Source: Nemertoderma westbladi (Eukaryota; Animalia; Xenacoelomorpha). From it: a stretch of 64,000 bases of DNA. The translations under genes and the position numbers were made by a program. The notes below the pieces were generated by a model. That model saw only the letters and a program-made list of their open reading frames with translations. It had not been told where the DNA came from and did not search any database. Below, one piece after another: positions 6,061-43,190 of this stretch. Location: NCBI GenBank assembly GCA_032718475.1, contig JAUCBJ010008016.1, forward strand, positions 1 through 64,000. The letters run 5' to 3'. Within the stretch, counting starts at the first letter, position 1. The number at the start of each line of letters is the position of its first letter.

Positions 6061-6410
6061 TCTGTACAATCTGATCAGGCTTACACGCCTTCTGTTCAAT
6101 ACTGGCCTACAAATAAATAGAACTGACAGAAATAGGCCTAAGTAAAATCCCAATAAAAACCAGGCGTCCCCGATTAATTATTAAGACCTACTGGTATATA
6201 ATAATCAAAATCGAATAATACTGCTGTACCTGTACTGCTGTAGGTACCGGTCCGGGTGGTTAGGTAGTCAGGCCTACTGGGTACCGGTTGCCGGTACTTC
6301 AGCTTTATTGCCTACTGCAATACAGAAGCTATATCCGTTATTGTTCTTACCAGAACAATATTAAACTGTATTTAATGCCTACACTGCAATACAGACTAAA
6401 TATCCGTTAT

Positions 6411-19600: not shown

Positions 19601-19800
19601 TATCGGTAGGCGGTGTCTCGTCGTGTCTACTCTACTCTACCACGATATACTTACTGTATCGGTAGGCGGTGTCCCGTCGTGTCTACTCTACTCTACCACG
19701 ATATACTTACTGTATCGGTAGGCGGTGTCTCGTCGTGTCTACTCTACTCTACCACGATATACTTACTGTATCGGTAGGCGGTGTCCCGTCGTGTCTACTC
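7659..19800. repeat. Tandem array of 56-bp units (51-bp variant), about 220 copies, with higher-order repeats
   Basis: Consensus gtaggcggtgtcYcgtcgtgtctactc(tactc)taccacgatatacttactgtatcg. Rare variants recur at 3137-bp and 2979-bp spacing. Confidence 0.98.
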
Positions 19801-19967
19801 TGCCAGTCTCCGACCTCATTAAGGACATTTAGGACGGTATCCAAGGTTTCCTTACTGGCCGCCTCCGCTGGCTCCAATGAGCCCAAGTTGCCGTCGATTT
19901 TACCCAATAAGTTCTCCACAACGGGAACTATTCCGCTACCGGCCTCCTCGGATACGAGATTACTTAA
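19767..19967 (-). CDS. Coding exon of unidentified host gene (67 codons, LSNLVSEEAG...QSRHDGTPPTDT)
   Basis: Acceptor gttgttgtttcag, open frame, donor ACA|GTAAGT. GC-richer than the flanking intron. Its 3' end is the terminal unit of the tandem array. Confidence 0.75.
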
Positions 19968-20426
19968 CTGAAACAACAACGGGGAGTCGGAATAAAAATT
20001 AAAAAAATAATAAATGAAATCCATTAAATAATAAAATGTATCTTGATTTTACATTTATTTAATACGGAATTTACCTAATTAATAAAATTACTTTGAATTA
20101 AGTTATAATATTTCAGATTAAGTTTTTTAGATTAAATTTTGTTTTAATTACTAGCTAAAAATAATAATGATATACAGTATACAATAAGAACCATTATTAT
20201 TATATTGAAACTTAAGGGCCCCAAAATTTACTGGAACCAAACAAGTAATATTGCAAAGGAGATTCAGCAATATCAAATTTGTTATTAAATTTAATAATTT
20301 TAACGGAATTATAATATAATACATTATAAATAAAACTGATTACTTTGATAAACCAGAGCTACGGCACTACGGCGACATTAGTGCACTACTTTATATGTAA
20401 AGGAGAAGACTACAACAAGGAGTAAA

Positions 20427-21740: not shown

Positions 21741-24700
21741 ATGAGCATGAACTCGAACCATCTTGAACCGAAATACACTGCTGTATGTTTGTATAATGCT
21801 CGATCCATTAATAACAAAGCGGCAATTATTAAAGATCACATTGTAGATGATAGAATAGACATCCTTGCGATAACGGAAGCGTGGTTAAAGGGTGATGAGA
21901 GCGATAACCAAGTAACAAACGAAATATGTCCTAAAGGATACGTTATAGAACACAATCCTAGAACATCCACGAGAGGTGGAGGAGTAGCTTGTGTTTTCAA
22001 ACGGTGTCTCAAATTAAAAACGTGTGCCGCTAGTGAGTTTGTGTATTCTACATTTGAATATATTGAATTAACATTCACCCAACTTGGATCTGTTATTAGG
22101 CTTATTATATTGTACCGCACCTGCCCTTCGCCTAAAAACGGACTCACTGCAGCATTATTCTTTGAACAATTCGCTGAGTTTCTGCAGCACATTATAGTTC
22201 TTCCGGGTAGAATACTATTATTGGGTGATTTCAACTTTCATGTTGATGTCTGCGATAACAAGGATGCCGCCGAGTTTCTTGACATTTTAAATTGCTTTGG
22301 ATTGGTACAGTTAGTAAATCAACCAACCCACATAAAGGGCCATACACTAGATCTGGTGCTAGTACACACTGACGACCAGAATATCGTTTGCAACGTTTTT
22401 GTACGAAATATAGGTTTATCCGACCACTTTGCAGTCTACTTTAACTTGAATTTCACTAAACCAGCCGATATATCACAGACAATAAGTTACCGAAATATAA
22501 GTAAAATAAACGGTAATCTGTTTTTGGAGGATTTAAAACATTCACCAGTATGCGACTCTCCTTCTGGTGATATTAATGGAGTTATTAAAATGTATAATGA
22601 TAACCTAATGAACATACTCGATAAACACGCCCCATTACAAACAAAAACTGTTTCCATGAGGCCGAAGGCAAATTGGTACACTGATGAGATTAACGACGCA
22701 AAAAGAAAACGCAGAAGATTGGAGCGCCGATATCGAAAGACGAATATCTGTGCTGATTGTATCGCCTATCGCCTACAGTGCACGGTGGTTGCCAATACCA
22801 TAGCGTCAGCAAAAGAGACATATTATAGTAACATTATAAAGAATAATGCAGGTGATCAACGAAAACTATTTTCAGTGGCTGCCAAAATACTTTATCGTAA
22901 AAACAAAAGTACATTGCCTTCACACGAGGATGATGAAAAACATGTTTATGGAATTCTTTGACAAGAAAATAAAGGATATTAGATATGACTTATTATCTGG
23001 AAATGGCGGTTCTACTTCACGGGGCGTTGATGATCTGGGGGCTCCTACGGAGGGCGCTATCAAACTGGGTGTTCCTATGGGGGGCGCTACTGAATTGGGC
23101 ATTCCTACGGGGGGTGATACTGGACTGGGCGCTCCTACAGGGGAATCATCAGACCAGGGCGTTCCTACGGGGGGAGCATCTGACCTGGGCATTCCTACAG
23201 GGGGTGCTGCTGGACTGGGTGTTTCTACGGGGGGTGCAACTGGACTGGGCGTTCCTACGGGGGGACCATCTGACCTGGGCATTCCTACAGGGGGTGCTGC
23301 TGGACTGGGTGTTTCTACGGGGGGTGCAACTGGACTGGGCGTTCCTACGGGGGGCTCATCTGAACTGGGCATTCCTATTGGGGGACCATCTGACCTGGGC
23401 ATTCTTACGGGTGAAGCATCGGATCTGGGTGTTCCTACAGGGGGCGCTAGTGAACTGGGCGTTCCTATGGGGGGCGCAACCAACCTGGGCATTTCTACGG
23501 GGGGTGTTACTGGACTGGGCGCTCCTATGGGGGGGGGGGGGGGCTACTGAACTGGGCATTCATACGGGGGCCGCTACGGGACTGGGCGTTCCTACGGGGT
23601 GCGCAACTAACCTAGGCATACCTACGGGGGGCGCTACGGGACTGGGCGTTCCTACGGGTATGGGGGGCGCAACCAACGGTAAAGGAAACAATATTCCCAA
23701 ATTGGAACACTTTAATAAAATAACAATGGATGAGGCAGAAAAGCTAATAAAGAACTCAAAATCTAAATCTAGTACCATGGATCCGATTTCCACGCAATTA
23801 GTAAAACATTCAATAAAATTGTTGCTACCAGTGATTATGTTAATTATTAATTTATCAATTACAACTGCTACTGTGCCGACTCTATTCAAGGAAGCTGTGT
23901 TAACACCAGTCATAAAGAAAGCACGATTAAACCCTGAGATACTTAGGAACTTTAGGCCGGTGTCTAATCTGATATATTTAGCAAAGTTAACAGAAAGGGT
24001 GATTGCAAACCAGCTGATGACTCATATGAACATAAATAAATTGTATGAACCTTTACAGAGCGCGTACAGACCCTTACACGGAACGGAGACCGCGTTGCTT
24101 AAGGTAAGCGACGACATATTACGCAAAATCGATTCGGGATCGGGAGTACTTCTCGTCTTATTAGACCTTAGTGCTGCCTTCGACACGGTCGACCACGTTA
24201 AACTGTTGGACACTCTAGATCGAGAAATCGGGGTTGAGGGAATCGCCCTGGACTGGTTCAGATCGTACTTGTCGAATAGGTCACAACAGGTTCGCATTAA
24301 TGCAAAATATTCGAACCGGTTGGATTTGCTGTACGGGCTGCCACAAGGATCGGTACTTGGGCCTATATTATTTTCGATATACACTCGTTCGCTTTCAAAT
24401 GTTATTCGCAACCACGGCCTCTCGTATCATTTGTACGCGGACGATACACAGCTATACATTAGTTTTAAACCTATTAATTCGTCCGTCGCTGTTGAGGTGA
24501 CTGAACGTTGCGTGGCCGATGTAAAGAAGTGGATGGAAGATAATTTATTGAAAATGAACTCAGATAAAACGGAGATTATCCTTCTGCAGTCCCGTTTCGG
24601 TAAACAACTAACGCCCCCTAACATACAAATAGGGGATGACCTGATCAGCTGCAGCGACAAGGCACGTAATATAGGTTTCATCGTGGATTCAAATCTGACA

Positions 24701-24959
24701 TACAGCAATCAAATAAGTACAACGGTCCGAGATGCATTTCTTCATCTTCGAAGTTTGGCTAAAATTAAACGGTACCTCAGCAGACATGACCTTGAAATCT
24801 TAATTCACGCCTTTGTCACAAACAAACTCGACAGCAACAACTCATTATATTATGGATTACCCTCGAAGTCAATCAAAAAATTACAATATGTACAGAATTC
24901 CGCAGCGCGACTGCTAGAGGGCGTTAAGAAACAAGAGCACGTCACTCCAGTCCTTAAAC
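21741..24959 (+). pseudogene. LINE ORF2 (APE endonuclease + reverse transcriptase), frameshifted and interrupted
   Basis: YNARSI, AITEAWL, LGDFNFH, GHTLDLV, LSDH; LLDLSAAFDTVDH, LPQGSVLGP, YADDTQLY. Frameshifts near 22940 and at the long G run (~23528-23543). Cut by the BEL LTR at 24960. Confidence 0.9.
23031..23672 (+). repeat. 30-bp GC-rich minisatellite (~21 units, LGVPTGGATG-like) inside LINE ORF2
   Basis: Units such as ctgggcgttcctacggggggcgctactgga, lying between the EN and RT domains. Confidence 0.92.
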
Positions 24960-26568
24960 TGTTCGCGGTATTTCAACTTTCCATAACGCGAGTTGAATAT
25001 TTTTGTATTTATTTAAAATTGATTATTCCGATATTACTACTGGGTGCGGGACCATGGGTTTTGGGCACATTTAATAAACTGGGGGCGATTTATGGGCGAA
25101 CTTTGGGGCAACTTACAGGGTACGGGAATAATTTCATAGTTATAAGGGCCAGGGGGGATGGAAAATGCAAGCAGTATTCAGGTTAGCCTGAGTACTATTA
25201 GGCCCTGGCCAACTTCCTGCTGCCTGTAGGGGTGGATTTGGTAATGCGCCAGGCCTAAAGGACAAGGACAGCCCTTAGCGGTCCCTGGCCAACAGCAGCC
25301 ATTACGAGACTGAAAAGAACTCGGACCGCTGACTGCTTGTGTCAGGGATTTGCGACGGGCACCGACGGCCCCTTAGTAGCCAAGCCGTTCTGGTTCTCGA
25401 TGATCGAACCCCGGGGTTCGTGAGGGGTGGAGCGGACACGCGAACGGGTGGCCAACTTAAGACTGCCCCCTGACCTAAGCCGTACTGGTTCTCGATGACC
25501 GATCCCTTCGGGGTTCGCGAGGGGTGGGACGGACATGCGAAAGGGCTGGCCACAGGACGGGTTTGACGAGAACTGCCCTTAGCGGTCTCTGGTCAATGGC
25601 AGCTACTACGAGACTGAAAAGAACTCGGAACGCTGACTGCTTGTACTGGGATTTGCGACGGGACCCGACGACAGACCCCTTAGCCAAGCCGTACTGGTTC
25701 TTGATGATCGTTCCCTTCGGGGTTCGTGAGGGGTGGAACGGACACGCGACGGGGTCGAAAGACAAAGGACTAGACTCGACTAGACTCTACTGGCCTACCG
25801 ACTGTTCGGAGCAGTTTCTTGGCTGCCGAAGCGACTACGAGCCTGAAACGGACTCGGAAAGCCTAGGTGGTTGGGTTTCTGTGATGAACCGACGGACCCC
25901 TAGCCAAGCCGTTCTGGTTCTCGATGATCGAACCCTTCGGGGTTCGTGAGGGGTGGAACGGACACGCGAACGGGTCCACCGACACGACAGACTCCTAGCC
26001 AAGCCGTACTGGTTCTCGATGACCGAACCCTTCGGGGTTCGAGAGGGGTGGTACGGATACGCGACAGAGTCTACCGACTGGACCGACCCTTAGCCAAGCC
26101 GTGCTGGTTCTCGATGATCGTTCCCTTCGGGGTTCGTGAGGGGTGGAACGGACACGCGACAGGGTCGACCGACACCGACACTACGGCACTAAGACTGGGA
26201 CCGAGGGAAAATCTGGGGAACATTAGGTAGGCTAAAATTCTGAGCGAACAGTGGGTTATTAAATAATCTACCGTAGGGATTTATATTATCGTGTATAATT
26301 ATTGTGAATATTTGGTGTATATTGATTTGGGGAAGCCCAAAATTATTCTTAATCAGGTTTCAATGATGTTGAACAGGTTTCAACTATAGGAAGTTACATT
26401 AAAGAGTATATCCAACTAATGCAGCTTTTTATCAACCGCAAACTTGCATCTTAGAAAATATTCCCTCCCCACAATCAATATCCAGTGACTGGCCGGGGCT
26501 CGGTGGTCTGTTAAGTCACGTCTCCAGCATCGGCGTTTTTCCCCCCTGGTGTTGGGATAACGGCAACA
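24960..26568 (+). repeat. 5' LTR of the BEL element (1609 bp)
   Basis: Direct repeat of 37758-39365 and 41260-42868; TG...CA ends. Confidence 0.97.
25381..26160 (+). other. Six ~65-nt hairpin units (kink-turn-like internal loop, UUCG cap) in the LTR; also present in LTR2 and LTR3
   Basis: Consensus ccgtWc-tggttctc-GAT-GA-Y-cgaaccc-TTCG-gggttcg-N-GA-gggg-tg-gWacgg at ~25383, 25477, 25686, 25906, 26001 and 26096. Confidence 0.75.
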
Positions 26569-26696
26569 AAATTAAGAATAATTATATGGTTAATTTTGAC
26601 GGGGTGTCAAAATTAAGAATAATTAATGCGGTTAATTTTGACAGGGTGTCAAAATTAAGGATAATTACGGTCAACTTCAACTGGTGGAAGTTGAGA
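26569..26696 (+). promoter_or_regulatory. PBS-position region without TGG: three CAAAATTAAGRATAATT copies and perfect hairpins
   Basis: 26571-26583 (attaagaataatt) is the exact reverse complement of LTR 26341-26353. Hairpins TTAATTTTGAC-N5-GTCAAAATTAA occur twice, plus tcaacttc...gaagttga. Confidence 0.7.
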
Positions 26697-26860: not shown

Positions 26861-27052
26861 ATGGAAGTATCGATCACACCCATTGATATAATTCAAGTTG
26901 AGCCAGGAATCTGGCACGTCGAAGTTGAGGTACAAGGAACGAACGTTGGACGATTCAGGATTACTGTTCGGGTGGTCCAAGCTGAGTACAATACCTACGA
27001 GGAACTGTTTTACGACATCGCGTATCTAGCCATCGACGAGGCGTTACAATGA
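26861..27052 (+). CDS. Small upstream ORF (63 aa) overlapping the gag start by ATGA
   Basis: ATG start and protein-like sequence; its TGA overlaps the gag ATG at 27049. Confidence 0.45.
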   Translation: MEVSITPIDIIQVEPGIWHVEVEVQGTNVGRFRITVRVVQAEYNTYEELFYDIAYLAIDEALQ

Positions 27053-30000
27053 CAACAAATAACGTATCCGATACCGACGAGATGGATCACCACACAGACT
27101 CGGAAGCCGACGAGGTACCAAACGTCAAGAACATGACCCGTCGGTTAGGGGCTCTTAAAGGCGGAGTAACCCGAGCTTACCAACGGATGGAGAAACAACT
27201 CAAGGGAGTCAAAACCCCCCTCAATGAGGTACAAACTCAGCTTCAAAGTATCCGAAATATCCTACAGCGGTACGAAAGGATGATACAGGCGTACCAAGAG
27301 CTCGTCCCCCCCACCGATCAAGAAAACTACCCCAAGTTGGAAGAACACGTTGTACATCTAGATGGGTTCCGCAAACAACACCGGAGGACCCTCAGCCTTG
27401 TGAGAGGCTATGAGGAACAGTATTACAAGAGGGCTGACGCGGAATCAGTACGATCCTCCAGCATTAGGACAGCAGTACATCGAAAGAGAACGGGGTCCGC
27501 TAGAAATCAGCACTCCAGCGCTAGGAGCGAGATATCCGGCTCAGCGCGCAGTTCTTAAGAGGCGCCGCCACTCCGAGACCAACTGCGAGAACGGAAGGCA
27601 TTAGCCCTCAAAGCTCGGATGGAAGATGAGTATATTCAACTGCAAGCCGAGCAGGATGTATTAGCCGCCGAAACACAAAGGCGAGAGGCCGAACAAGCGG
27701 CCGAACGGCAGGCCGAACAACGCAAACAGGAGGCCGAACAACATAGACAAGAGGCCGAACGACAGGCCGAACTACGTGAACAGGAGGCCGAACAACGTAA
27801 ACGAGAGGCCGAACAACGTAAACGAGAGGACGAACGGCAGGCCGAACAACGCAAACAGGAGGCCGAACAACGCGGACGAGAGGCCGAACGAGAGATCGAA
27901 CAACGTAAATGGGAAGCGGAAATGCGTAAACAACACGCCGAGGCCCAAGCAATTCTCATCCACAAAAAGAATGCGGATATTGCAAAACTCGCAGAATACG
28001 AAGCCGCACTTATCGAACGAGATATTCAACTCTACGAGGACTGGGAAAGGGATATAGATCAGGAATATGAACCAATTCCGGTACCGGAGTTAGAAAAGTC
28101 ATTTACACCAACAGCGGCGAAACCTCCGAAACCCGAGATCCCGCCTACCAAACAGTCTACGCTATCGGCACAAGCCCCGGTGTTCCATCCCCCACCGGCT
28201 ACGCTAAAGAATGAGGAACCTTATTTCCCATCCAACACCACGACAGCGAGTGTACCCAAGTACGAGCCTGAAAAGGACTCGGAACGGGACGCCACTCCCC
28301 GATCGAACAACCCATTTACATCAACACCACAAACTCGTAGCCGCGTCATTATTAAAACCCCACCTATTATTGATCCATCAAGTATGGGAGTGAGTGCCAA
28401 TAACTATAACCCTCTGAGTCACTCTAGTTCAGACGACGTCAGCATCATCCGGGCGTTGGAGAACCGCCTTGCCATGCCTAAGATGGAGATCCGCACCTTC
28501 GAAGGAGATCCCGTCGATTACCTCAGATTCAAAAAACGGTTCTTTGCGCAGATTGGATCAACGGACATAGCCGAAGCACAGAAATTGGTATATTTATCGC
28601 AATACTTGGGTGACAAACCACGCAGAATTGTTGCATGTTTTGAAGGAGGTTCTCAGGAGGCATACTATGACGCATGGAAAACTCTAGACAAAAGATACGG
28701 AAATACCGGAACTATAATTAATAAAACTCTAGAGAGACTGATAAAGGACGCGGGATCACTAGGGGACCCACAGAACATACAGGAATTCTCCGACTCTATG
28801 AAAGATGCCTATTATACTCTGAAACCCTTAAATAAGGAGGACCAGGTGAACAACATTCTAAACCTCCGACAGATCGCACGGAAATTCCCCGGATGGCTAC
28901 AAAGTAAGTGGGCTTATAAATGTGTAGATCTCCGGCGCAGACATCCAGATCGAGATCCTAGCTTCCTCGAAATGTCGGCATTCCTGGACGATATCTCCGA
29001 AGCCATGAATGACTCGATGTTTTCAAAACAAAGTCTCGCAAAGTTGGACGGAATAGAGAGCAACTCCAGGAGTAAGATAATCCCTCCGAAACCGAGATTC
29101 CGCCCCCCACCGGTAAGTACGATGGCCATTACCATGGCCGAGGATTCCGACGACGAAGACTACGAGGAACCGACATCCGCTGAGGAATGGGCATGTTATC
29201 TCGCGAGTTGGGCACCCGAAAGGGAAGGCATCACAAATTCCCTGCTCTGTCTCTTCTGTGGGGAGAAACACAAAGTGGAATTCTGCAGAAAGTTTCAGTT
29301 TGCCGAACTCGTCCCACGCTTCAAGGCGATAATGAAACACCGAGGATGCTTCCGGTGTCTTGGAACAGGTCACTATGTTCGGGAGTGCGACCAAAGATCA
29401 TGCTGTGCTGTCTGTAACGACCAACGCCATCACACGCTCCTCCACATCCCCGCGAACTTCGATTTCACTACCCTCCCCTTTCGGATCGAAGCCAGGCGAA
29501 GAGGAGAAACAAACCACGTCTTCAAAGGAACCCGTACAACCCAACGGAGAGAAACCAACCCGTTTAAAATCTACACCGATACACCACAAGTAACCAATAT
29601 TTCGGCCACGATTAATCTTATAAATCGCCGCTACATGGTCTTCGCAAAGGTAATCCCAGTAAGGATCCAAGGAGTCGGCAAATCTTTGACGACACTCGCG
29701 TTCCTCGATAACGGGTCCGACGGAACCATCATCGACCGGGATTTCCTCGAGCAACTCGGCCTAGAATATGAACCTTGTAAACGGCCCATACAAACCATCA
29801 CCGATAACAAAGAAGTAGAGTCCGGGGAGGTGCAACTCCAGATGGAAGGAGTGATGAAGGGCTACGAAACGGCTAGGTTAACCATCAAGAACGCCTTGGT
29901 ACACACAGACCTTCGGGTGCGGTTCCGACAATCAGCCGAGTACGCCCCCCTCATACAATTGGACCGAGACGATGTAGACCTGAGGTGTCCGCAGTTGGAC

Positions 30001-33000
30001 GTGAACCGTATCACCCTACTGATCGGACTTGACACACCGGAACTACACATCCCCACCGGAGATATCGCTCGATCTATAAACCAGGATGATGGATTTTATG
30101 CGGAACGAACAATAATGGGACGGACCCTCTGCGGCATTAAGGAGGAAACTACAGACACCTATACCTACCTTCCTAAATGTCAGATTAAAGAAAATGTAAC
30201 CTCTGTGGGTTATTGCTCAGCTTCGGATCTTGACGAGGATTTGTTTCTGGAAACCGAGAAAACCCAACGAGAGATGACGAAATATTTTAATTTGGAGACC
30301 CAGGAGTTCGCGGAAAAGGACGAAAACCCATCCGAAGAGGACCAATATTGTATGGACGTTCTCGACCAGGCCACGTTTAAAGACGGACATTGGTGTTCAC
30401 CTATGTTGTGGAAGGACCCAAACAAACCAATGGCAAACAACGCCAGCATGGCACTTAGGCGACTTAAAGGGATTTTACGCCGGCTGAATGACCAACCCGA
30501 GATAAAGGAGAAGTATAATACCGTAATCCAAGGATATCTCGATGATGGATTAGCAGAAATGGTACCACGGAACGAACTGCAAGGCGGTAAAAGAACATAT
30601 TATCTCCCGACCCACTATGTAGTAGAAGCCCGCAAAGGTGGGAAATTCCGAGTGGTAAATGATGCTGCCGCTATGTACCAGGGCGAATCCCTAAACAGTC
30701 AACTTTATACGGGACCCAACATATATAGCACACTCATCGGCGTATTGATCAGGTTCAGGGAAAACCGGGTAGCATTCACCTCTGACATCAAGGCCATGTT
30801 TCATCAAGTTCGTACATTACCAAGAGACTCGGACTGTCTACGTATCCTATGGACGGATAAAACGCTTACTCAACAGGAGATTAGCCAACTCACGATAAAG
30901 GACGTAGACGTAATGCGTATGGTCGTCAGGATCTTCGGCGCTAAGGACTCGCCGGTAGCATGCAGTGACATGCTAAAGAGGACGGCAACTATGTGCGAAA
31001 ACGAGTTCCCTCCTACCGTCATAGAAACCATTCGACGATGCTTCTACGTGGACGACGGATGCGCCGGCGCGGATAATGTAGATGAGGCGTATCGGCTAGC
31101 AATGGGGATGGTAGAATGTCTAAAGAAAGGAGGGTTTCCACTCGTGAAGTTCAGATCCCACGACAAAACACTTATGGAAAAGTTTCCGGAGGACATCCGG
31201 CTGGAAAATAACAAGATGTATTCGGAGGAGGTGGAACATCGTGTACTCGGGATTGAATGGGACATAGAATCAGATGAATTCATCTTCAAATATAAACCCC
31301 TACCCAAGCCTATGACAAAAAGGGGATGTTTGTCGATAAAAAGTGCAATCTTCGACCCACTAAATTTCATATCTCCAGTAACCTTGGCCAGAATGAACCT
31401 GATTAAGGAAATGTGGATAGAAGGACTGGGATGGGACGAAGAGCTTCCCCCACACCTTAGCGTCAAATGGAGAAAATGGACGGAGCAGCTCGAACACCTA
31501 CATCTTATGCGGATACCTAGACCGTTTTTCCTCGATAAACTGCCCACCGATATCTTCCAGCTCCACACCTTTTCGGATGCTTCGAATACAGGAATCGGCG
31601 TAGTAACCTTCTTACGGAGACTAAGTAACGATGGAAACGGCGATACAAGCTTCTTATTCTCCAAAGCAAAGACAGTATCCGGGGAATTCGTAGCAACGAT
31701 TCCGAGGCTCGAGCTACAAGCTGCAGTTTGGGCAGTAAGACAGAATCGCATGGCCATGCGGAACCTACGGATCCCCATAGAATCTCAACACTTCTGGGTA
31801 GATTCAAGTATAGTTCTCTATTATCTCCACTCTCCATCACGGCGTCACACCACATTTGTTGCAAACCGAGCCACAGAGATTAAACAGTGTACCGGCCGAG
31901 AACAGTGGCATCACGTGAACGGGAAGGAAAACCCAGCGGACTTATCAAGCCGAGGCGCCACCCCAAAACAACTCGGTAAAAGTAAACTCTGGCTTACAGG
32001 CCCGGAATTCCTACGGCAGCCACAGTTAACATGGAGTACCCGATTCGACCCCGAACTCGACAGCGGAAAATACTCCGAGGACGATAAAGAGATCCGTAAA
32101 ATCCATCGAAGCAACGCGGTGGAAATTTATAGTTGCCTGACTGAGCCTGCAAAGGACTCGGGCAGGCACTATAACGTCGCGACGATTACTCAACTAGCGG
32201 CGTCCTTACATCGGTTGATCGAGCGAACTTCATCCATGAGACGGCTCGTCCACCACGTTGTAACCCTTCGCAACTTCCTACGGTGGAAAAACAACAAACC
32301 GATAGTTCAACGGAATATACAAGAACTTATTATCGCGGAGAAGTGTATTGTTAGATATGTCCAGAAAGAAAGTTTCCCCGATGAATGGGAACAACTTAGT
32401 GCGGGCAAAACGTTGAAACCGGACAGCCCAGTCTACCAACTGAGACCAATGATGGGAAAGGACGGACTGATCCGACTAAATACCCGGATGGCAAACGCCC
32501 CGGTCGAATATGAGGTCAAATACCCGGCGCTTCTGCCCGGAACGTCGACACTAGCTAAGCTATTAATTCTACAATGTCACGAGGACAACCACCACGCAGG
32601 ACAGAATTGGATTATAGCTAATATAAGACAAAGATATTGGATCACCCACATCCAGCCACTGATTCGGAAAGTGTTGAAACGTTGCTTCACCTGCAGACGT
32701 TACCTAGCGCCACCAATCACACAAAAGATGGCCGACTTACCAGCCACCCATCTACAAGCGGATTCCCCGCCATTCTACGTCACCGGAGTGGACTGTTTCG
32801 GACCGTTCACGGTTATTGAACGACGATCCAACATCAAATGCTGGGGAGCCATCTTCACCTGCCTAAGATCTAGGGCAATTTACCTAGATATCGTGGTAAA
32901 TCTGACACAACACGCATTCATCAACGCCCTGCGTCGGTTCGTGGCGAACAACGGGACATGCCGCCACATGTATTCCGATAATGGTACAAACTTTGTGGGA

Positions 33001-33750
33001 GGAGAAAGAGAACTTAGAGAGGCGATCGAGGGATGGTTTACCGATAACACCGCATCCCAAGTCTGGAAGGAACACCAGATACAGTGGCACTTCCAGACCC
33101 CCTTAGCACCCCATACGAGCGGGGTATGGGAGAAACTGATCGACCTAGTGAAACGATCCATGCGCGTCGCTCTAGGCGATACCCGGGTAACCCATGACAC
33201 CCTCCGCACAACATTCTGCGAGATCACGGCTACCCTGAACAACCGACCCATTGTTCCTATCCGCGACGACCCCACAGACCTGGAACCCCTCACTCCTAAC
33301 CACTTACTGGGGAGACCCAAAACCCACCTCCTCCCGGAAACCATGTTCCCGGATCCCAACGAGATCGCGAAACATACAAACTGGAAAAAGGCCCAAGCAT
33401 TGGCAGCGCATTGGTGGAGAATTTGGGCCCAGGAGTACCTCATAACCCTCCGGACCAGGAGGAAATGGAACAACACCTACCGGAACGTCGCAGTTGGCGA
33501 CATGGTACTAGTTAAAGAAGATCTCAAAGACCGCGTTCACTGGCCTGTGGCGCGGGTCGTGACCATACACCCAAGCAAAGACGGACTTGCGAGGACTGTG
33601 ACGATACGAACGAAAGCGGGCCACTACCAACGCCCCATCCAGAAGCTGTGCCTTCTTGAAGGCAATGACAGTGGTGATTCTACGAGAGGTGATAAGTTCC
33701 CTACTCAAGATCCTGCTGCGGACATTGGTGACAATTATAAATGCGTTTAA
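27049..33750 (+). CDS. BEL/Pao Gag-Pol polyprotein (Gag, PR, RT, RNase H, IN) with one in-frame TAA at 27556-27558
   Basis: ORFs 27049-27558 and 27619-33750 share a frame and the gap is open. Motifs: FEGDPVDY, triple Zn knuckle, FLDNGS, FYVDD, FSDAS/IPRLELQAA/WVDS, HHCC, GVDCFGP/YSDNGTNF/GVWE. Confidence 0.95.
27680..27910 (+). repeat. Coding EAEQR/QAE heptad-like repeats in Gag
   Basis: Repeated gaggccgaacaacg; charged helical translation. Confidence 0.85.
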
Positions 33751-34025: not shown

Positions 34026-34447
34026 TGTCCGTTGCGTGCGCGGTTCGGGGCGTAGGCGGTGTAACGAGTCCAGCTGTAGATCCCGGATTGCCGCGCAACA
34101 CCCCCTCTATCCCGTTATTCTGGTGGGTCCATGGTGCATCCACGTGACTTCGACGATAGAGGGTTTTATGTTTCTCAGTCGCGTTATTCTGGTGGGACCG
34201 TTACGTGGATTTTGGGGCGTAGGCGGTGTAACGAGTCCAGCTGTAGATCCCAGAATGTTGCGTAACCCCATCCCACATGACTTCGTCGACTGAGCTTTAT
34301 GTTGTTGGGAGTGTTATTCTGGTGGGTCCCTGGTGCATCCACATGACTTCACTCTCAGCGTCTTCATTGTCCGTTACGTGCGCAGTTTGGGGCGTAGGCG
34401 GTGTAACGAGTCCAGCTGTAGATCCCAGATTGCCGCGTAACACCCCT
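34026..34447 (+). repeat. Three ~170-bp spaced repeats between pol and ORF3
   Basis: ggggcgtaggcggtgtaacgagtccagctgtagatcc at 34047, 34214 and 34389; gttattctggtggg three times. Confidence 0.85.
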
Positions 34448-34991
34448 TCCACGACAAAGATTAACCAAAGAAAATGATTGAATATAGTTGGAAACGATGA
34501 AAAGGATCAGACAACTCTACTATAAACCTGAATGATGACGCGTATACTGATGAAAATGTAATGATGCGCACCCTGGTGCTGCGCTTATAACAATGATGAT
34601 AGCCGGGGGGCTATAAACCCAATGATGATGTGGAAATAAATAAATGTGAAATAAATGGTGGAAATAAATGTGTTGAAATATGTGGAAATAAATGAAATGA
34701 GATGAAATGATAATGAAATGAAAAAAGACAAAAAAAAGGTATAAAAAAAAGGTCAAAGAAAAGAATTGGAAAAAAAGGACAAAAAAGTCATAAAAAACTG
34801 GTTGGATATTATGTATAGCTATAGTAACTGTAAATGCTGAATGTATTAGCAATAAGATGATAGATGCCTATAGCAATGTTATTAATAAACTGAATTAAAT
34901 AAAAAACTGAATTATTCTGCTATCGCTATAGTTTCAGACTTTCTGGACTTATAATTAACTGATCTAATTTGTAACGGATATAATCGTAAAT

Positions 34992-37592
34992 ATGGACCCA
35001 AATCGCCAAATTATCGGCGAATTACGTAACACGATAGATCTACTGGAATATTCGCAACCTGGATCCCCTGACTTTGATACAAATTGGAACACTCTGCTAA
35101 ATGAGAACGTACGAGACGTTAAATTCACCGGGCGAGAGGGACCGGATTCTAAGAATCTACGAGCCCTCCGGTTAGCCGATGCTAGTACGAGACTGAAAAG
35201 AACTCGGAACGCAAAGGCAACCGGAGGGGACGATTCGTCGTTTTGGGAAACGTTCCGGCAGAGCGTCTACAGATCCCGATGTTTGATCTACGACAACGAG
35301 GGAAACGCGACGCCCACCTCGAAAGCGATTACGTTGGCGAGATGTCAAAGTTTCGTCGACGACAAGAGTACGTACCTCGCCCACTGGGGAAACCTGTCGG
35401 AGTGTACGGCGACGCTTCGAGAGGAACGCATATCGATTATCCAGAACCGAGACGACTACCAGGAAAAGTATGGGGCGAAAGAATACGGTCGATCCTTAGT
35501 CGTCGTCCTCGGAACCCTGGACGGTTTGGTACTGGTGTGCCGAATATTCCCGACACCCAGACAGGAAGTGCGGGCAGCCGGAGCGATCTGGTTGCTGCCT
35601 CCGGAAATCCAAAAGATCCTCTTCGACTTCGACGTCATTAAAATCGGGTCGGATATCAAGGCAGACGTCCGGAACGACTACGCGAACGCTCCCGCAGGAA
35701 GAAACCGACGAAACGACCTCAACGCACTTAGCCATTGCATCGACACTCAAACGCTGCTAGCCTGGTTGCGATTCGCCGAGTTCATGCGAGGATTCCAAGA
35801 AGTGAGACCGACGAAATCCGGGATCGGCTACCTCGCTGTGCTCAACGGCGGTATCGACTTCAAACCCCAGAAATTCCGGGACTATAATAAAATATACGGC
35901 GGATACCCGGGATTAGAGATAAAGAGCGAGCGGGAGGGTCGATGGAAGGACGTCGATCGGAAGTGGACGATACACCAAAGGTGGGAGAATCCCGATCGAC
36001 GGAGCTATATCTACGTCGTTATGGAATGTTACACCGTCGCTAAGTTTATCTGCAAGACTCTCGATAACCTTATTACGGCGGCCCCCCTTTCCTTCGTCGA
36101 CTACGACTGGAACGAGGTTATAAACCACGCGTTTAAAGCGGTCGAGAACATTACACCGGGAGAATCGAAAACGCCCGCCGTTATCAACTCCTGGGACGAG
36201 AGCGGACCTTACGATATCCCTACGATTACCGAGCTTCTCGGTGCGGAGGAGCCTCTGATCTCTTCGGAAGGGGAAGAGATATGGCTAAACGAGGGTGTTC
36301 TTCTCTCCACCCCGAAGCGACAACTCGAGCCGGAGGCCGCGTATGGACCGGCCGCCAAACGAGTTGCCTCGGCCGAACCGATAAAGAGAGCAGGCGTCTA
36401 CACCCCACGCGGCTCCGGTAGCCCCGCGAGAGAGGTAGCCACTACAGCTGCATTGAGCGACTTCGGCGACATATGCCAACGGTTATCCCCGTATCCTTTC
36501 CCGGGTGGCGAAGATTGGTCGTCGGAGATTCCGAGTACCAGCCACCAACGGACCCGCTCAGCGATACTGGTCGAGGAGGGCCCCAGCGATGCGCCGACCC
36601 CCGACGATCTCCTCGGTATCCCTCCGTCGAAAACCCCGGCACCTCTTCGCCGACCAGCGGTGGCTACTACACCCGCCGTTCCTCAGGACCCTATGCGACT
36701 AACCCGTTGGTACGCCGAGCAAACTGAATGGATCCACCGCCAGAAACGGTCGTCCGAGTTGAGACCAGCGGGACACAAAGAGGGTTATCGGAGCGAGAAC
36801 ATACTACGCAAAAGCCTAGCATTCCGCGGGCTACCGACCACCGAGAATATTCCGAAGAGCGACCGACGACTCGAATACTACGTCGGCGTCCCGATTCCGA
36901 TATTCCCCGGTCGAGAAATGCAGTTGGAGGTATGCGGCGACTGCGGCTCGGAGCAGTGCCCACGCGGCAGAAGGAATCGGGTTACCGATTCTTGCCTCCA
37001 GCTCCTCGGGATACTCTACTGCCCATACTGCGCGATATCGGGCCACGACGTTTCGGTCTGTCCGATCCTTTATAACCTCTGCACCACGTGCGGTTTCCGT
37101 GGACATTCCGCTAGCCCCCGCTGCTATATCAAATGTCCAACCAAAGACGTTACCGCTATGGGCAATATGGTCATGTTTGAGACATACGCAAACAGCCACT
37201 TAAAGACCAAGTTTCGGAGAAACGCTCGGAATATCGCGCAGGAGATGGCGTGCGGATATTTCTCCTTCCCGGAACGCCTCCACACGTCGGCCACGCTACC
37301 TTTCCATTACGTGGATCTGCTACTGAGCGCCGGATTATTCGGCCCATTCGAAGTCATTAGACGATTATATTCGTATAAAGAAGAGTTCGGTGACGGAGAG
37401 TGGTTTCTCGAGGCTCGCAACTCCGAGTTGGAAAGACGAACCGACATGATCCCGATGCCTTCGAAAGGAAGAGCCGCCAGGAGACAAGCCGAAGCGTTAC
37501 TCACGATGGACGTTGACGCTCCTCTACCAGCCATAGCGATCGATGAGAGTCGACGGGCGAAGAGACGAAAGGCGTATCAGAAAAAGAAATAG
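34992..37592 (+). CDS. BEL element ORF3: DEDDy (WRN/EXD2/Mut-7-like) 3'-5' exonuclease-like domain + low-complexity linker + CCHC-type zinc knuckles (866 aa)
   Basis: ExoI-like LIYDNEG, ExoII-like LPPEIQKILFDFDVIKIGSDIKADVR, CIDTQTL, SGIGYLA, ExoIII-like W...YIYVVMEC. C-terminal CPYCAISGH..C and CTTCGFRGH..C. No signal peptide or TM segment seen. Confidence 0.7.
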   Translation: MDPNRQIIGELRNTIDLLEYSQPGSPDFDTNWNTLLNENVRDVKFTGREGPDSKNLRALRLADASTRLKRTRNAKATGGDDSSFWETFRQSVYRSRCLIYDNEGNATPTSKAITLARCQSFVDDKSTYLAHWGNLSECTATLREERISIIQNRDDYQEKYGAKEYGRSLVVVLGTLDGLVLVCRIFPTPRQEVRAAGAIWLLPPEIQKILFDFDVIKIGSDIKADVRNDYANAPAGRNRRNDLNALSHCIDTQTLLAWLRFAEFMRGFQEVRPTKSGIGYLAVLNGGIDFKPQKFRDYNKIYGGYPGLEIKSEREGRWKDVDRKWTIHQRWENPDRRSYIYVVMECYTVAKFICKTLDNLITAAPLSFVDYDWNEVINHAFKAVENITPGESKTPAVINSWDESGPYDIPTITELLGAEEPLISSEGEEIWLNEGVLLSTPKRQLEPEAAYGPAAKRVASAEPIKRAGVYTPRGSGSPAREVATTAALSDFGDICQRLSPYPFPGGEDWSSEIPSTSHQRTRSAILVEEGPSDAPTPDDLLGIPPSKTPAPLRRPAVATTPAVPQDPMRLTRWYAEQTEWIHRQKRSSELRPAGHKEGYRSENILRKSLAFRGLPTTENIPKSDRRLEYYVGVPIPIFPGREMQLEVCGDCGSEQCPRGRRNRVTDSCLQLLGILYCPYCAISGHDVSVCPILYNLCTTCGFRGHSASPRCYIKCPTKDVTAMGNMVMFETYANSHLKTKFRRNARNIAQEMACGYFSFPERLHTSATLPFHYVDLLLSAGLFGPFEVIRRLYSYKEEFGDGEWFLEARNSELERRTDMIPMPSKGRAARRQAEALLTMDVDAPLPAIAIDESRRAKRRKAYQKKK

Positions 37593-37757
37593 TGGATTGG
37601 GATATTCCAGGAACATTTATCGAATATTTATTTTTATACAAACTCTAGGCCGAATTAATTAAAAACTATGCAATATTAAATTTGGGTTTTTTATATTGGG
37701 AATGACCTACGCAAACTCAATCGACCGACAGACTTCACGAAGGTCATTGGGGGGGAC

Positions 37758-39365
37758 TGTTCGCGGTATTTCAACTTTCCATAACGCGAGTTGAATATTT
37801 TTGTATTTATTTAAAATTGATTATTCCGATATTACTACTGGGTGCGGGACCATGGGTTTTGGGCACATTTAATAAACTGGGGGCGATTTATGGGCGAACT
37901 TTGGGGCAACTTACAGGGTACGGGAATAATTTCATAGTTATAAGGGCCAGGGGGGATGGAAAATGCAAGCAGTATTCAGGTTAGCCTGAGTACTATTAGG
38001 CCCTGGCCAACTTCCTGCTGCCTGTAGGGGTGGATTTGGTAATGCGCCAGGCCTAAAGGACAAGGACAGCCCTTAGCGGTCCCTGGCCAACAGCAGCCAT
38101 TACGAGACTGAAAAGAACTCGGACCGCTGACTGCTTGTGTCAGGGATTTGCGACGGGCACCGACGGCCCCTTAGTAGCCAAGCCGTTCTGGTTCTCGATG
38201 ATCGAACCCCGGGGTTCGTGAGGGGTGGAGCGGACACGCGAACGGGTGGCCAACTTAAGACTGCCCCCTGACCTAAGCCGTACGGTTCTCGATGACCGAT
38301 CCCTTCGGGGTTCGCGAGGGGTGGGACGGACATGCGAAAGGGCTGGCCACAGGACGGGTTTGACGAGAACTGCCCTTAGCGGTCTCTGGTCAACGGCAGC
38401 TACTACGAGACTGAAAAGAACTCGGAACGCTGACTGCTTGTACTGGGATTTGCGACGGGACCCGACGACAGACCCCTTAGCCAAGCCGTACTGGTTCTCG
38501 ATGATCGTTCCCTTCGGGGTTCGTGAGGGGTGGAACGGACACGCGACGGGGTCGAAAGACAAAGGACTAGACTCGACTAGACTCTACTGGCCTACCGACT
38601 GTTCGGAGCAGTTTCTTGGCTGCCGAAGCGACTACGAGCCTGAAACGGACTCGGAAAGCCTAGGTGGTTGGGTTTCTGTGATGAACCGACGGACCCCTAG
38701 CCAAGCCGTTCTGGTTCTCGATGATCGAACCCTTCGGGGTTCGTGAGAGGTGGAACGGACACGCGAACGGGTCCACCGACACGACAGACTCCTAGCCAAG
38801 CCGTACTGGTTCTCGATGACCGAACCCTTCGGGGTTCGAGAGGGGTGGTACGGATACGCGACAGAGTCTACCGACTGGACCGACCCTTAGCCAAGCCGTG
38901 CTGGTTCTCGATGATCGTTCCCTTCGGGGTTCGTGAGGGGTGGAACGGACACGCGACAGGGTCGACCGACACCGACACTACGGCACTAAGACTGGGACCG
39001 AGGGAAAATCTGGGGAACATTAGGTAGGCTAAAATTCTGAGCGAACAGTGGGTTATTAAATAATCTACCGTAGGGATTTATATTATCGTGTATAATTATT
39101 GTGAATATTTGGTGTATATTGATTTGGGGAAGCCCAAAATTATTCTTAATCAGGTTTCAATGATGTTGAACAGGTTTCAACTATAGGAAGTTACATTAAA
39201 GAGTATATCCAACTAATGCAGCTTTTTATCAACCGCAAACTTGCATCTTAGAAAATATTCCCTCCCCACAATCAATATCCGGTGACTGGCCGGGGCTCGG
39301 TGGTCTGTTAAGTCACGTCTCCAGCATCGGCGTTTTTCCCCCCTGGTGTTGGGATAACGGCAACA
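37758..39365 (+). repeat. 3' LTR of the BEL element (1608 bp)
   Basis: Preceded by the PPT and followed by TSD TAAAC. Confidence 0.97.
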
Positions 39366-39372
39366 TAAACGT

Positions 39373-41094
39373 TTGCATTGGTTACCTGTAAATTTACGGA
39401 TCAAATTTAAAATAGCTTTGTTGACATTCAAGTGTTTACATGGTGCTGCTCCTGCCTACTTGACCCATTTAATAACTCCCTATGTACCTCCACGACAATT
39501 ACTGTCTGCTGATAAGGGACTTCTATTTGTACCGCAGTTTTACTTGCATAATTACGGGAGACTCGATAACCTTATTACGGCGGCCCCCCTTTCCTTCGTC
39601 GACTACGACTGGAACGAGGTTATAAACCACGCGTTTAAAGCGGTCGAGAACATTACACCGGGAGAATCGAAAACGCCCGCCGTTATCAACTCCTGGGACG
39701 AGAGCGGACCTTACGATATCCCTACGATTACCGAGCTTCTCGGTGCGGAGGAGCCTCTGATCTCTTCGGAAGGGGAAGAGATATGGCTAAACGAGGGTGT
39801 TCTTCTCTCCACCCCGAAGCGACAACTCGAGCCGGAGGCCGCGTATGGACCGGCCGCCAAACGAGTTGCCTCGGCCGAACCGATAAAGAGAGCAGGCGTC
39901 TACACCCCACGCGGCTCCGGTAGCCCCGCGAGAGAGGTAGCCACTACAGCTGCATTGAGCGACTTCGGCGAAATATGCCAACGGTTATCCCCGTATCCTT
40001 TCCCGGGTGGCGAAGATTGGTCGTCGGAGATTCCGAGTACCAGCCACCAACGGACCCGCTCAGCGATACTGGTCGAGGAGGGCCCCAGCGATGCGCCGAC
40101 CCCCGACGATCTCCTCGGTATCCCTCCGTCGAAAACCCCGGCACCTCTTCGCCGACCAGCGGTGGCTACTACACCCGCCGTTCCTCAGGACCCTATGCGA
40201 CTAACCCGTTGGTACGCCGAGCAAACTGAATGGATCCACCGCCAGAAACGGTCGTCCGAGTTGAGACCAGCGGGACACAAAGAGGGTTATCGGAGCGAGA
40301 ACATACTACGCAAAAGCCTAGCATTCCGCGGGCTACCGACCACCGAGAATATTCCGAAGAGCGACCGACGACTCGAATACTACGTCGGCGTCCCGATTCC
40401 GATATTCCCCGGTCGAGAAATGCAGTTGGAGGTATGCGGCGACTGCGGCTCGGAGCAGTGCCCACGCGGCAGAAGGAATCGGGTTACCGATTCTTGCCTC
40501 CAGCTCCTCGGGATACTCTACTGCCCATACTGCGCGATATCGGGCCACGACGTTTCGGTCTGTCCGATCCTTTATAACCTCTGCACCACGTGCGGTTTCC
40601 GTGGACATTCCGCTAGCCCCCGCTGCTATATCAAATGTCCAACCAAAGACGTTACCGCTATGGGCAATATGGTCATGTTTGAGACATACGCAAACAGCCA
40701 CTTAAAGACCAAGTTTCGGAGAAACGCTCGGAATACCGCGCAGGAGATGGCGTGCGGATATTTCTCCTTCCCGGAACGCCTCCACACGTCGGCCACGCTA
40801 CCTTTCCATTACGTGGATCTGCTACTGAGCGCCGGATTATTCGGCCCATTCGAAGTCATTAGACGATTATATTCGTATAAAGAAGAGTTCGGTGACGGAG
40901 AGTGGTTTCTCGAGGCTTGCAACTCCGAGTTGGAAAGACGAACCGACATGATCCCGATGCCTTCGAAAGGAAGAGCCGCCAGGAGACAAGCCGAAGCGTT
41001 ACTCACGATGGACGTTGACGCTCCTCTACCAGCCATAGCGATCGATGAGAGTCGACGGGCGAAGAGACGAAAGGCGTATCAGAAAAAGAAATAG
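39373..41094 (+). pseudogene. Chimeric open frame: LINE ORF2 C-terminal ~63 aa fused in frame to the C-terminal ~510 aa of BEL ORF3
   Basis: HWLPVNLRIKFK...NYGR|LDNLITAAP...; starts at TTG, with no early ATG. Confidence 0.75.
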
Positions 41095-41259
41095 TGGATT
41101 GGGATATTCCAGGAACATTTATCGAATATTTATTTTTATACAAACTCTAGGCCGAATTAATTAAAAACTATGCAATATTAAATTTGGGTTTTTTATATTG
41201 GGAATGACCTACGCAAACTCAATCGACCGACAGACTTCACGAAGGTCATTGGGGGGGAC

Positions 41260-42868
41260 TGTTCGCGGTATTTCAACTTTCCATAACGCGAGTTGAATAT
41301 TTTTGTATTTATTTAAAATTGATTATTCCGATATTACTACTGGGTGCGGGACCATGGGTTTTGGGCACATTTAATAAACTGGGGGCGATTTATGGGCGAA
41401 CTTTGGGGCAACTTACAGGGTACGGGAATAATTTCATAGTTATAAGGGCCAGGGGGGATGGAAAATGCAAGCAGTATTCAGGTTAGCCTGAGTACTATTA
41501 GGCCCTGGCCAACTTCCTGCTGCCTGTAGGGGTGGATTTGGTAATGCGCCAGGCCTAAAGGACAAGGACAGCCCTTAGCGGTCCCTGGCCAACAGCAGCC
41601 ATTACGAGACTGAAAAGAACTCGGACCGCTGACTGCTTGTGTCAGGGATTTGCGACGGGCACCGACGGCCCCTTAGTAGCCAAGCCGTTCTGGTTCTCGA
41701 TGATCGAACCCCGGGGTTCGTGAGGGGTGGAGCGGACACGCGAACGGGTGGCCAACTTAAGACTGCCCCCTGACCTAAGCCGTACTGGTTCTCGATGACC
41801 GATCCCTTCGGGGTTCGCGAGGGGTGGGATGGACATGCGAAAGGGCTGGCCACAGGACGGGTTTGACGAGAACTGCCCTTAGCGGTCTCTGGTCAACGGC
41901 AGCTACTACGAGACTGAAAAGAACTCGGAACGCTGACTGCTTGTACTGGGATTTGCGACGGGACCCGACGACAGACCCCTTAGCCAAGCCGTACTGGTTC
42001 TCGATGATCGTTCCCTTCGGGGTTCGTGAGGGGTGGAACGGACACGCGACGGGGTCGAAAGACAAAGGACTAGACTCGACTAGACTCTACTGGCCTACCG
42101 ACTGTTCGGAGCAGTTTCTTGGCTGCCGAAGCGACTACGAGCCTGAAACGGACTCGGAAAGCCTAGGTGGTTGGGTTTCTGTGATGAACCGACGGACCCC
42201 TAGCCAAGCCGTTCTGGTTCTCGATGATCGAACCCTTCGGGGTTCGTGAGAGGTGGAACGGACACGCGAACGGGTCCACCGACACGACAGACTCCTAGCC
42301 AAGCCGTACTGGTTCTCGATGACCGAACCCTTCGGGGTTCGAGAGGGGTGGTACGGATACGCGACAGAGTCTACCGACTGGACCGACCCTTAGCCAAGCC
42401 GTGCTGGTTCTCGATGATCGTTCCCTTCGGGGTTCGTGAGGGGTGGAACGGACACGCGACAGGGTCGACCGACACCGACACTACGGCACTAAGACTGGGA
42501 CCGAGGGAAAATCTGGGGAACATTAGGTAGGCTAAAATTCTGAGCGAACAGTGGGTTATTAAATAATCTACCGTAGGGATTTATATTATCGTGTATAATT
42601 ATTGTGAATATTTGGTGTATATTGATTTGGGGAAGCCCAAAATTATTCTTAATCAGGTTTCAATGATGTTGAACAGGTTTCAACTATAGGAAGTTACATT
42701 AAAGAGTATATCCAACTAATGCAGCTTTTTATCAACCGCAAACTTGCATCTTAGAAAATATTCCCTCCCCACAATCAATATCCGGTGACTGGCCGGGGCT
42801 CGGTGGTCTGTTAAGTCACGTCTCCAGCATCGGCGTTTTTCCCCCCTGGTGTTGGGATAACGGCAACA
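41260..42868 (+). repeat. Third LTR copy, from the tandem duplication
   Basis: PPT before it and TAAAC after it; shares variants with the 3' LTR rather than the 5' LTR. Confidence 0.95.
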
Positions 42869-43190
42869 TAAACGTTTGCATTGGTTACCTGTAAATTTAC
42901 GGATCAAATTTAAAATAGCTTTGTTGACATTCAAGTGTTTACATGGTGCTGCTCCTGCCTACTTGACCCATTTAATAACTCCCTATGTACCTCCACGACA
43001 ATTACTGTCTGCTGATAAGGGACTTCTATTTGTACCGCAGTTTTACTTGCATAATTACGGGAGACGGGCGTTCTCAATTGCGGCACCAACAATCTGGAAC
43101 TCCCTCCCGCAAGAAGTTAGAGATGCCACGACGCTGACTCTGTTTGAATCGCGACTCAAAACTCACCTGTACAAAGAGGAATATTGCTGA
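42869..43190 (+). pseudogene. C-terminus of LINE ORF2
   Basis: LHWLPV.RI.FKI..L.FK.LHG.AP.YL...GRRAFS.AAP.IWNSLP...F.SRLKTHL, a typical L2/CR1-group RT C-terminal extension. Confidence 0.9.

Follow-up and report, generated by a model that had tools for sequence, protein, structure and literature searches.

A nine-hairpin array with K-turn and loop-E-like modules in the LTR of a BEL/Pao retrotransposon: a candidate response element on the element's own RNA

Hairpin repeats within a long terminal repeat (LTR) may be maintained as DNA or as RNA, and if as RNA, the question is which protein reads them. Such an array is present in a 64,000-nt stretch of Nemertoderma westbladi DNA (positions 1 to 64,000 of contig JAUCBJ010008016.1; the window). 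The initial annotation had assigned the array to an LTR and had described it as six box C/D-type kink-turn (K-turn) hairpins that would serve as a multivalent protein-binding scaffold. The location proved correct: the repeats lie in an LTR (24960-26568) with TG..CA ends and a 5-bp target duplication. The source of this 1609-bp LTR is a young BEL/Pao retrotransposon (Table 1). Within one gag-pol we found a DUF1759 Gag, a protease, a reverse transcriptase (RT, recognised by homology to BEL/Pao polyproteins), Peptidase_A17, an integrase and DUF5641, and the TG..CA LTRs, the polypurine tract and the 5-bp duplication are those of a BEL/Pao LTR element. The closest Pol relatives among the best 120 of 698 matches were 33-39% identical, none of them close. 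The gag start region has a single in-frame TAA (27556-27558).

Table 1. Coordinates of the element and its predicted RNA modules in the window.
Feature	Position	Strand	Remarks
Target-site duplication, 5 bp	24955..24959; second copy 39366-39370	+	inside L2-like LINE; frame continues across insertion
5′ LTR (LTR1), TG..CA, 1609 bp	24960..26568	+	99.6% identity to LTR2; predicted U3 = 24960-26340
Hairpin A1	25271..25361	+	long stem, bulged-G/loop-E-like internal loop, 4-bp stem, GAAA; z -5.4
Hairpin B1	25367..25453	+	K-turn unit without UU of UUCG loop
Hairpin B2	25464..25548	+	K-turn unit, 3b.3n = C.C; most diverged of B units
Hairpin A2	25575..25665	+	
Hairpin B3	25673..25757	+	K-turn unit, two U.U in upper stem
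Hairpin A3	25792..25895	+	stem homologous to ORF2 copy
Hairpin B4	25894..25978	+	fully paired K-turn/UUCG unit; z -4.0
Hairpin B5	25989..26073	+	fully paired; compensatory changes in lower and outer stems; z -3.3
Hairpin B6	26084..26168	+	K-turn unit, two U.U in upper stem
Predicted self-primer, putative RNA 5′ end	26341..26353	+	13/13 complementary to 26571-26583
Predicted primer-binding site, 2 nt past LTR	26571..26583	+	two further imperfect repeats up to ~26670, among strong hairpins
gag-pol, BEL/Pao type	27049..33750	+	Pfam DUF1759, Asp_protease_2, Peptidase_A17, Integrase_H2C2, DUF5641
A-type hairpin in gag (module at 28258)	28240..28308	+	AGUA/GAA internal loop
A-type tip in pol (at 32143)	32127..32174	+	GCAA loop, without loop-E-like motif, long stem
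ORF2, extra ORF, 866 aa	34992..37592	+	RNase D/EXD-like region, CCHC-type Cys/His cluster, basic C-terminus
A-type hairpin in ORF2 (module at 35183)	35148..35249	+	frame differs from gag copy; z -4.0
Polypurine tract	37749..37757	+	
3′ LTR (LTR2)	37758..39365	+	identical nine-hairpin array layout; copy that would be transcribed
Tandem duplicate of 36060-39562	39562..43065	+	3′ part of ORF2, LTR3 (41260-42868), host LINE

A third LTR sits in a tandem duplication of 3.5 kb, part of which is host LINE DNA, and LTR3 is therefore no independent evidence; the segment was either duplicated after insertion or is an artefact of assembly. Short variant contigs on the LTR region numbered 4824 in DNA run X1 and 1515 in DNA run X3, and thousands of such contigs are expected for a multi-copy family. 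Between pol and ORF2 a repeat is present in three copies (34044-34452) without a folding signal (z +0.4 to +1.3); it is possibly a promoter or splice region for ORF2.

The array had been placed in the 3′ UTR (U3) of the genomic RNA, and a match between the LTR and the predicted primer-binding site lends indirect support to this placement. The longest match of this kind in 2000 shuffles was 11 nt, and the same held when shuffling was limited to the AT-rich last 400 nt. As in Tf1, the site adjoins the LTR, here with a 2-nt spacer, and is complementary to a stretch of it; the 13-bp complementarity implies Tf1-like self-priming with the array in U3. If the element is self-primed, transcription would start near 26341, so that the array would lie in U3 and at the 3′ end of transcripts only. 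A TATA-like string is found 23 nt upstream of 26341, and ATTAAA 57 nt downstream. An AATAAA at 25073 lies before the array; its use would give a truncated RNA that does not contain the hairpins. Primer sites complementary to the element's own LTR are described, in the sections available from three papers, for Tf1, Tj1, Sushi and Tcn1 and for Houba, Osr-1 and TAR (PMC4600332, PMC6317226, PMC5006619). The self-priming elements of those sections are Ty3/gypsy and Ty1/copia elements, whereas the present one is BEL/Pao. No published case of a self-priming BEL/Pao element was found in the accessible portions of Creative Commons PubMed Central and bioRxiv texts. Contigs skip ~45 and ~86 nt in the repeats past the LTR, indicating that the number of post-LTR repeats varies among copies.

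The six K-turn hairpins (B units) agreed with the initial annotation in most of their core. A GAU bulge followed by G.A and A.G was present in 6/6 units; the next pair (3b:3n), which is U:U in box C/D K-turns, was U.U in four units, C.C in one and C.A in one; a cUUCGg loop closed 5/6 units; and the GAGG variant ascribed to LTR2 and LTR3 was found in unit 4 of each. The contention that every unit folds as drawn did not hold. Only units 1, 4 and 5 had an intact upper stem; unit 2 had one U.U mismatch there, and units 3 and 6 had two each. Units 2, 3 and 6 also carried a purine-purine mismatch in the lower stem, so that three of the six B units are mismatched in both inner stems. With the 75-nt cut used originally, the drawn fold was obtained in 3/6 units (z -2.0 to +1.0). 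When the cut was 85 nt and included an outer stem, one long hairpin was obtained in 6/6 units, unit 2 in a shifted upper register. The true B unit is ~85 nt long, with a small basal loop and an outer stem that had been overlooked. The z-scores of the 85-nt units were -4.0, -3.3, -1.4, -1.3, -0.4 and +0.4, with B2 and B3 no better than shuffles.

A K-turn descriptor accepted 17 of 18 units across the three LTRs, the exception being unit 3 of LTR1 (U.G beside the bulge), and had two other matches in 128 kb (both strands). The K-turn motif appeared in 0.8% of single-unit shuffles, and with a stable loop in 0.4%. In the six-unit alignment, 91.5% of 165 cells were paired over 28 pairs; 3/500 shuffles reached this value, and slid registers, used as control, gave 30-55% paired cells. 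Four pairs were changed on both sides, three of these in the outer stem, where 5/33 variable or fixed cells were unpaired. Units 2-6 mutually differed by 3-11 nt in 71. The B units arose from each other by duplication and so cannot be counted as six separate chance occurrences. As the units are paralogous and also served for drawing the structure, the shuffle control is lenient and the pairing is support rather than proof.

By sequence, the B units have the signature of standard K-turns: a 3-nt bulge, G.A and A.G between two helices were found in 6/6 units, with an imperfect NC helix in 3/6. The 4b:4n pair was C:G in 6/6 units and the -1b:-1n pair was C:G in 5/6 units of LTR1; L3 was U. The proposed box C/D type was not borne out, because box C/D K-turns conserve G:C at 4b:4n and need protein for folding, as stated in the available sections of PMC5689011. 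The same sections link C:G at both -1b:-1n and 4b:4n to protein-free folding in Mg2+, and by these published rules B is predicted to fold without protein. The B units share with Kt-7, U4 and box C/D K-turns, as far as these are covered there, the 3-nt bulge, G.A, A.G and the bulge-adjacent C:G, but they differ from box C/D K-turns in C:G at 4b:4n, in having no guide and in their six copies per LTR. A minority A at -1n (25702 and 25730) occurred in 12 contigs of X3 (~3% of depth) and hints at a U-A variant of the bulge-adjacent pair; one X5 contig (depth 2.2) has A at -1n and appears to keep U at -1b.

The majority of K-turns adopt their fold when L7Ae-class proteins bind (PMC5689011, available sections), and for this reason Snu13 binding to B units is possible by analogy. 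A model built on the originally proposed function goes further, taking the B units for a multivalent scaffold on which Snu13/15.5K would bring in host snoRNP factors to serve export or stability, with A hairpins (see below) secondary. The standard core in all units, U at L3, U.U at 3b.3n in 4/6 and the folding of most K-turns on L7Ae-class binding, as reported in those sections, speak for it. We regard this model as quite unlikely, however, given the C:G at 4b:4n against the conserved box C/D G:C, and given that it leaves unexplained why A alone is copied into coding regions. The Rfam check of the array was likewise unfavourable: the only match was partial, to one C/D family (11.2 bits, far under the cut-off of 45; E 7.1), and the B units had neither an adequate Rfam match to a box C/D snoRNA nor a guide sequence.

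The array contains a second module, A, which the initial annotation overlooked: three LTR hairpins are interleaved with B, and three further copies lie in coding sequence. The nine repeats of the LTR, built from two predicted hairpin modules, follow the order A-B-B-A-B-A-B-B-B. In the A module, a 5x4 internal loop with the bulged-G/loop-E pattern is followed by a 4-bp stem that ends in a GAAA-type (GNRA-type) loop. The bulged-G/loop E motif is an AGUA/GAA-type 5x4 loop between helices; it was exact in 2/6 distinct A copies (gag and ORF2), variant in three and absent in pol. A looser loop-E descriptor was matched by 0.04% of unit shuffles. The 5x4 loop is common to A and the sarcin-ricin/eukaryotic loop E, the LTR copies keeping the pattern with other bulged bases; unlike in the known motif, a longer stem precedes the GNRA-type loop, and A1 misses one conserved adenine.

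A search with the 19-nt A tip gave 12 matches at 0-2 mismatches, all 12 on the plus strand and within the element; at 3-5 mismatches, the 128 kb of both strands of the window yielded no match. The reading frame through the tip differs between gag and ORF2, and the tip is thus no peptide motif. Between A3 and the ORF2 copy, 10/10 stem pairs were kept through 10 substitutions, in a register set by hand with one bulged base dropped; simulated substitutions kept these pairs in 0.02-1.7% of trials, depending on transition bias. Among the five full A copies, one closing pair changed from G-C to C-G and one position pair alternated between A.A and C-G. The pair count of the A core (eight pairs) was not significant, with 91/500 shuffles as high. 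By folding energy, the coding copies ranked 1 and 5 of 201 gag-pol windows and joint 1 of 74 in ORF2. The plus strand was more stable than the minus strand in 9/9 LTR hairpins; of the coding copies, the minus strand folds better in gag and has the better z in ORF2. Since A is repeated through coding regions, it is a better candidate than B for a functional signal.

These data bear on whether the repeats instead serve as DNA enhancers or arose in U3 by neutral slippage, with incidental folds. Tandem repeats are frequent in U3 regions; the A tip holds a 4-bp inverted repeat, a potential target for a dimeric factor; and the 3′ strand of the upper B stem is invariant, pairing being broken by changes in the 5′ strand. 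In addition, one contig in run X5 joins 25389 to 26104, keeping one A and one B unit. This junction suggests that array copy number is flexible, or it may reflect graph collapse. Against a DNA role stand the compensatory and wobble-type changes, with G.U pairs that are functional on the plus strand only, the sense orientation of 12/12 A tips, and the stems beneath the coding A copies, which are unrelated in sequence yet paired. We consider this explanation very unlikely. From the compensatory pairing in B, the stem retention between A3 and ORF2, the sense-only A tips and the plus-strand stability, it is highly probable that the nine-hairpin array is an RNA structure under selection.

Known RNA classes did not account for the array. 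Rfam returned nothing relevant in 20000-64000 or for the array alone, and no tRNA genes and no tRNA or 5S similarity were detected. A eukaryotic SECIS has a longer upper helix topped by an AA-containing loop and is accompanied by in-frame UGA codons; this reading of B was rejected on its 7-bp helix with UUCG, on TAA as the in-frame stop of gag and on the lack of an Rfam match. H/ACA, tRNA-derived Pol III unit and twister-like readings were dropped on the general motifs of these classes. That the A+B pair might be an undescribed self-cleaving ribozyme or ligand-sensing RNA is extremely unlikely: although tertiary motifs (K-turn, loop-E-like, tetraloops) are dense, the self-folding K-turn type is known from riboswitches and rRNA (PMC5689011, available sections) and the shortest array form is one A plus one B, no Rfam ribozyme or riboswitch matched up to E 5-10, a cut in U3 would deprive reverse transcription of its template, and A is present without B in coding regions.

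A candidate reader of the array is encoded by the element. A word-based search with ORF2 gave no match, and neither did Pfam; HMMER recovered eight distant relatives with a conserved Cys/His cluster. The ORF2 family profile matched trypanosome RNase D TbRND (7C42; PMC7797062) with E 6e-5 via the CCHC part, the Lin28 fingers, and, weakly, EXD2 via the N-terminal part with E 0.005. For ORF2, RNase D/EXD families had an Atlas score of 0.83, a lead only. AlphaFold models were poor (mean pLDDT 39 and 35), and Foldseek with these models gave no match. ORF2 offers no match, in a gappy alignment, to the D-x-E motif that its relatives P0121, P0122 and P0128 carry, and on this sequence comparison ORF2 may be nuclease-dead.

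A metagenome scan for ORF2 relatives yielded three loci out of 171 candidate stretches. In one of them (L016, 2811-10042) the relative lies directly behind pol of a distant BEL/Pao element, which indicates that the extra gene is common to more than one lineage. In another (L014, 8082-11194) it lies without pol among host-like genes, with short direct and inverted repeats around it; this is possibly a non-autonomous or domesticated copy. An RNase D-like extra ORF 3′ of pol is also known from the bdelloid Juno and Vesta LTR elements, where the function of the DEDDy ORF3 is left open in the available part of PMC5408684; the words "hairpin" and "priming" do not occur in the text of that paper. According to the same part, Juno/Vesta ORF3 has intact catalytic residues and belongs to other LTR lineages, whereas ORF2 appears to be without the first acidic motif. 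A CCHC cluster as in TbRND further sets ORF2 apart from Juno/Vesta.

The resemblance of ORF2 to EXD1-like piRNA factors, together with uniform units of ~85-100 nt that each have a closing stem, would fit an array that yields small structured decoy RNAs against host silencing or decay, as a Pol III cassette or as nuclease-resistant 3′ RNAs. By the general consensus, an A-box-like string precedes each B unit, but the B-box-like string is without the conserved A and C. T-runs of four or more are absent between 25062 and 26426, the array resembles neither tRNA nor 5S, and the coding-region copies would be unexplained. Decoy production is rated very unlikely.

Our preferred, still tentative, reading of the sequence is that the array might be a Rec/Rex-like response element on the element's RNA, bound by ORF2. 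The HERV-K RcRE is located in U3 (PMC6916052, available text), and here too a structured RNA lies in U3, with the U3 boundary as predicted above. As in the HERV-K Rec/RcRE, HTLV Rex/RxRE and HIV Rev/RRE systems, to the extent that the available text covers them, a U3 multi-hairpin element at the transcript 3′ end would be combined with an extra element-coded protein (PMC6916052). The present case differs in being BEL/Pao, in its two repeated modules with K-turn and loop-E-like motifs and in its coding-region copies; the Rev-type proteins are unrelated to ORF2, a large RNase D/CCHC-like protein, and the response-element role is a predicted one.

Gag, which also carries zinc fingers, could be an alternative binder of the A tips. 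The tips might then be a dispersed packaging or dimerisation signal, possibly with the GNRA loops of A docking in the basal loop of B. This would suit the spread of sense-strand tips over the full-length RNA (gag, pol, ORF2 and U3) and a loop that is still of GNRA type when changed to GCAA in pol. The ORF2 copy and the U3 array, however, would equally mark subgenomic RNA. As to docking, the basal loop of B, which contains an AA step, is similar to the 11-nt GAAA receptor described in the sections available of PMC2275092 and PMC11381326, and two B2 positions co-change towards the receptor. Of the receptor features (C2:G10, U3.A8, AA platform, G6:U7), U3 was present in 1/6 units and U7 in 1/6, never together; C occupies each of the two positions in 5/6 units, and there is an extra bulged A. 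In the available part of PMC2275092, U3.A8 has no good substitute and a change of G6:U7 to G:C costs 4.3 kcal/mol, so that the receptor reading is weak with each of two important positions missing in 5/6 units. We judge the Gag signal unlikely.

If ORF2 is the reader, the following course is proposed: (i) RNA synthesis would start near 26341 and the RNA would prime its own reverse transcription, leaving the array only at the transcript 3′ end; (ii) the A tip would be a specific protein-binding mark along gag, pol, ORF2 and U3, tolerated inside coding sequence because it is under selection; (iii) the B hairpin would form a sharp bend, predicted to fold in Mg2+ alone, and may additionally load a host L7Ae-family protein; and (iv) ORF2, possibly nuclease-dead, would coat the marked RNA for export, protection or sorting for packaging. 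The broader proposal, that a self-priming BEL/Pao lineage independently evolved complex-retrovirus-style control, with an RNase D/CCHC-derived reader of its own GNRA/loop-E hairpin and a K-turn array serving to bend the RNA or to load a host L7Ae-family protein, is more doubtful. Little work has addressed the RNA of BEL/Pao elements, and this one offers a short, sharply defined candidate site in three genes and U3. With a candidate site and a candidate partner protein, the role of the extra DEDD-like ORFs, as presented in the available part of PMC5408684, becomes testable in vitro. The element further contributes a naturally occurring multi-K-turn RNA from an LTR, and a predicted case of self-priming in BEL/Pao.

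Homologous arrays were sought with both modules. The three loci with ORF2 relatives (~30% identical; L016 ends ~820 nt past its ORF2) contained no A or B module, and the only additional copy recovered with covariance models of A and B was the pol tip (E 0.41). A pattern scan with the B core hit 13 viral loci, in none of which the hairpin was formed; one with the A tip hit no viral and three prokaryotic loci, none with flanking stems, which is about the chance level. In the accessible portions of Creative Commons PubMed Central and bioRxiv texts we found no K-turn or U3 hairpin array in a retrotransposon. The single parts are known, and their combination appears to be new.

Other repeats occur in the window. 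A second BEL/Pao element, on the minus strand, has identical 1181-bp LTRs (47533-48713 and 57184-58364) and an internal part that is 83% like 1052-7077; the sequence following its LTR (57140-57183) matches its own LTR over 9 nt, within the chance range. A MITE-like sequence at 45262-45392 has a long near-perfect inverted repeat with internal 23-nt repeats. A 56/51-bp satellite of ~219 copies fills 7612-20000, a 98-bp tandem repeat lies at 63086-64000, and upstream of the element a tandem repeat (23015-23677) is inserted in the LINE reading frame.
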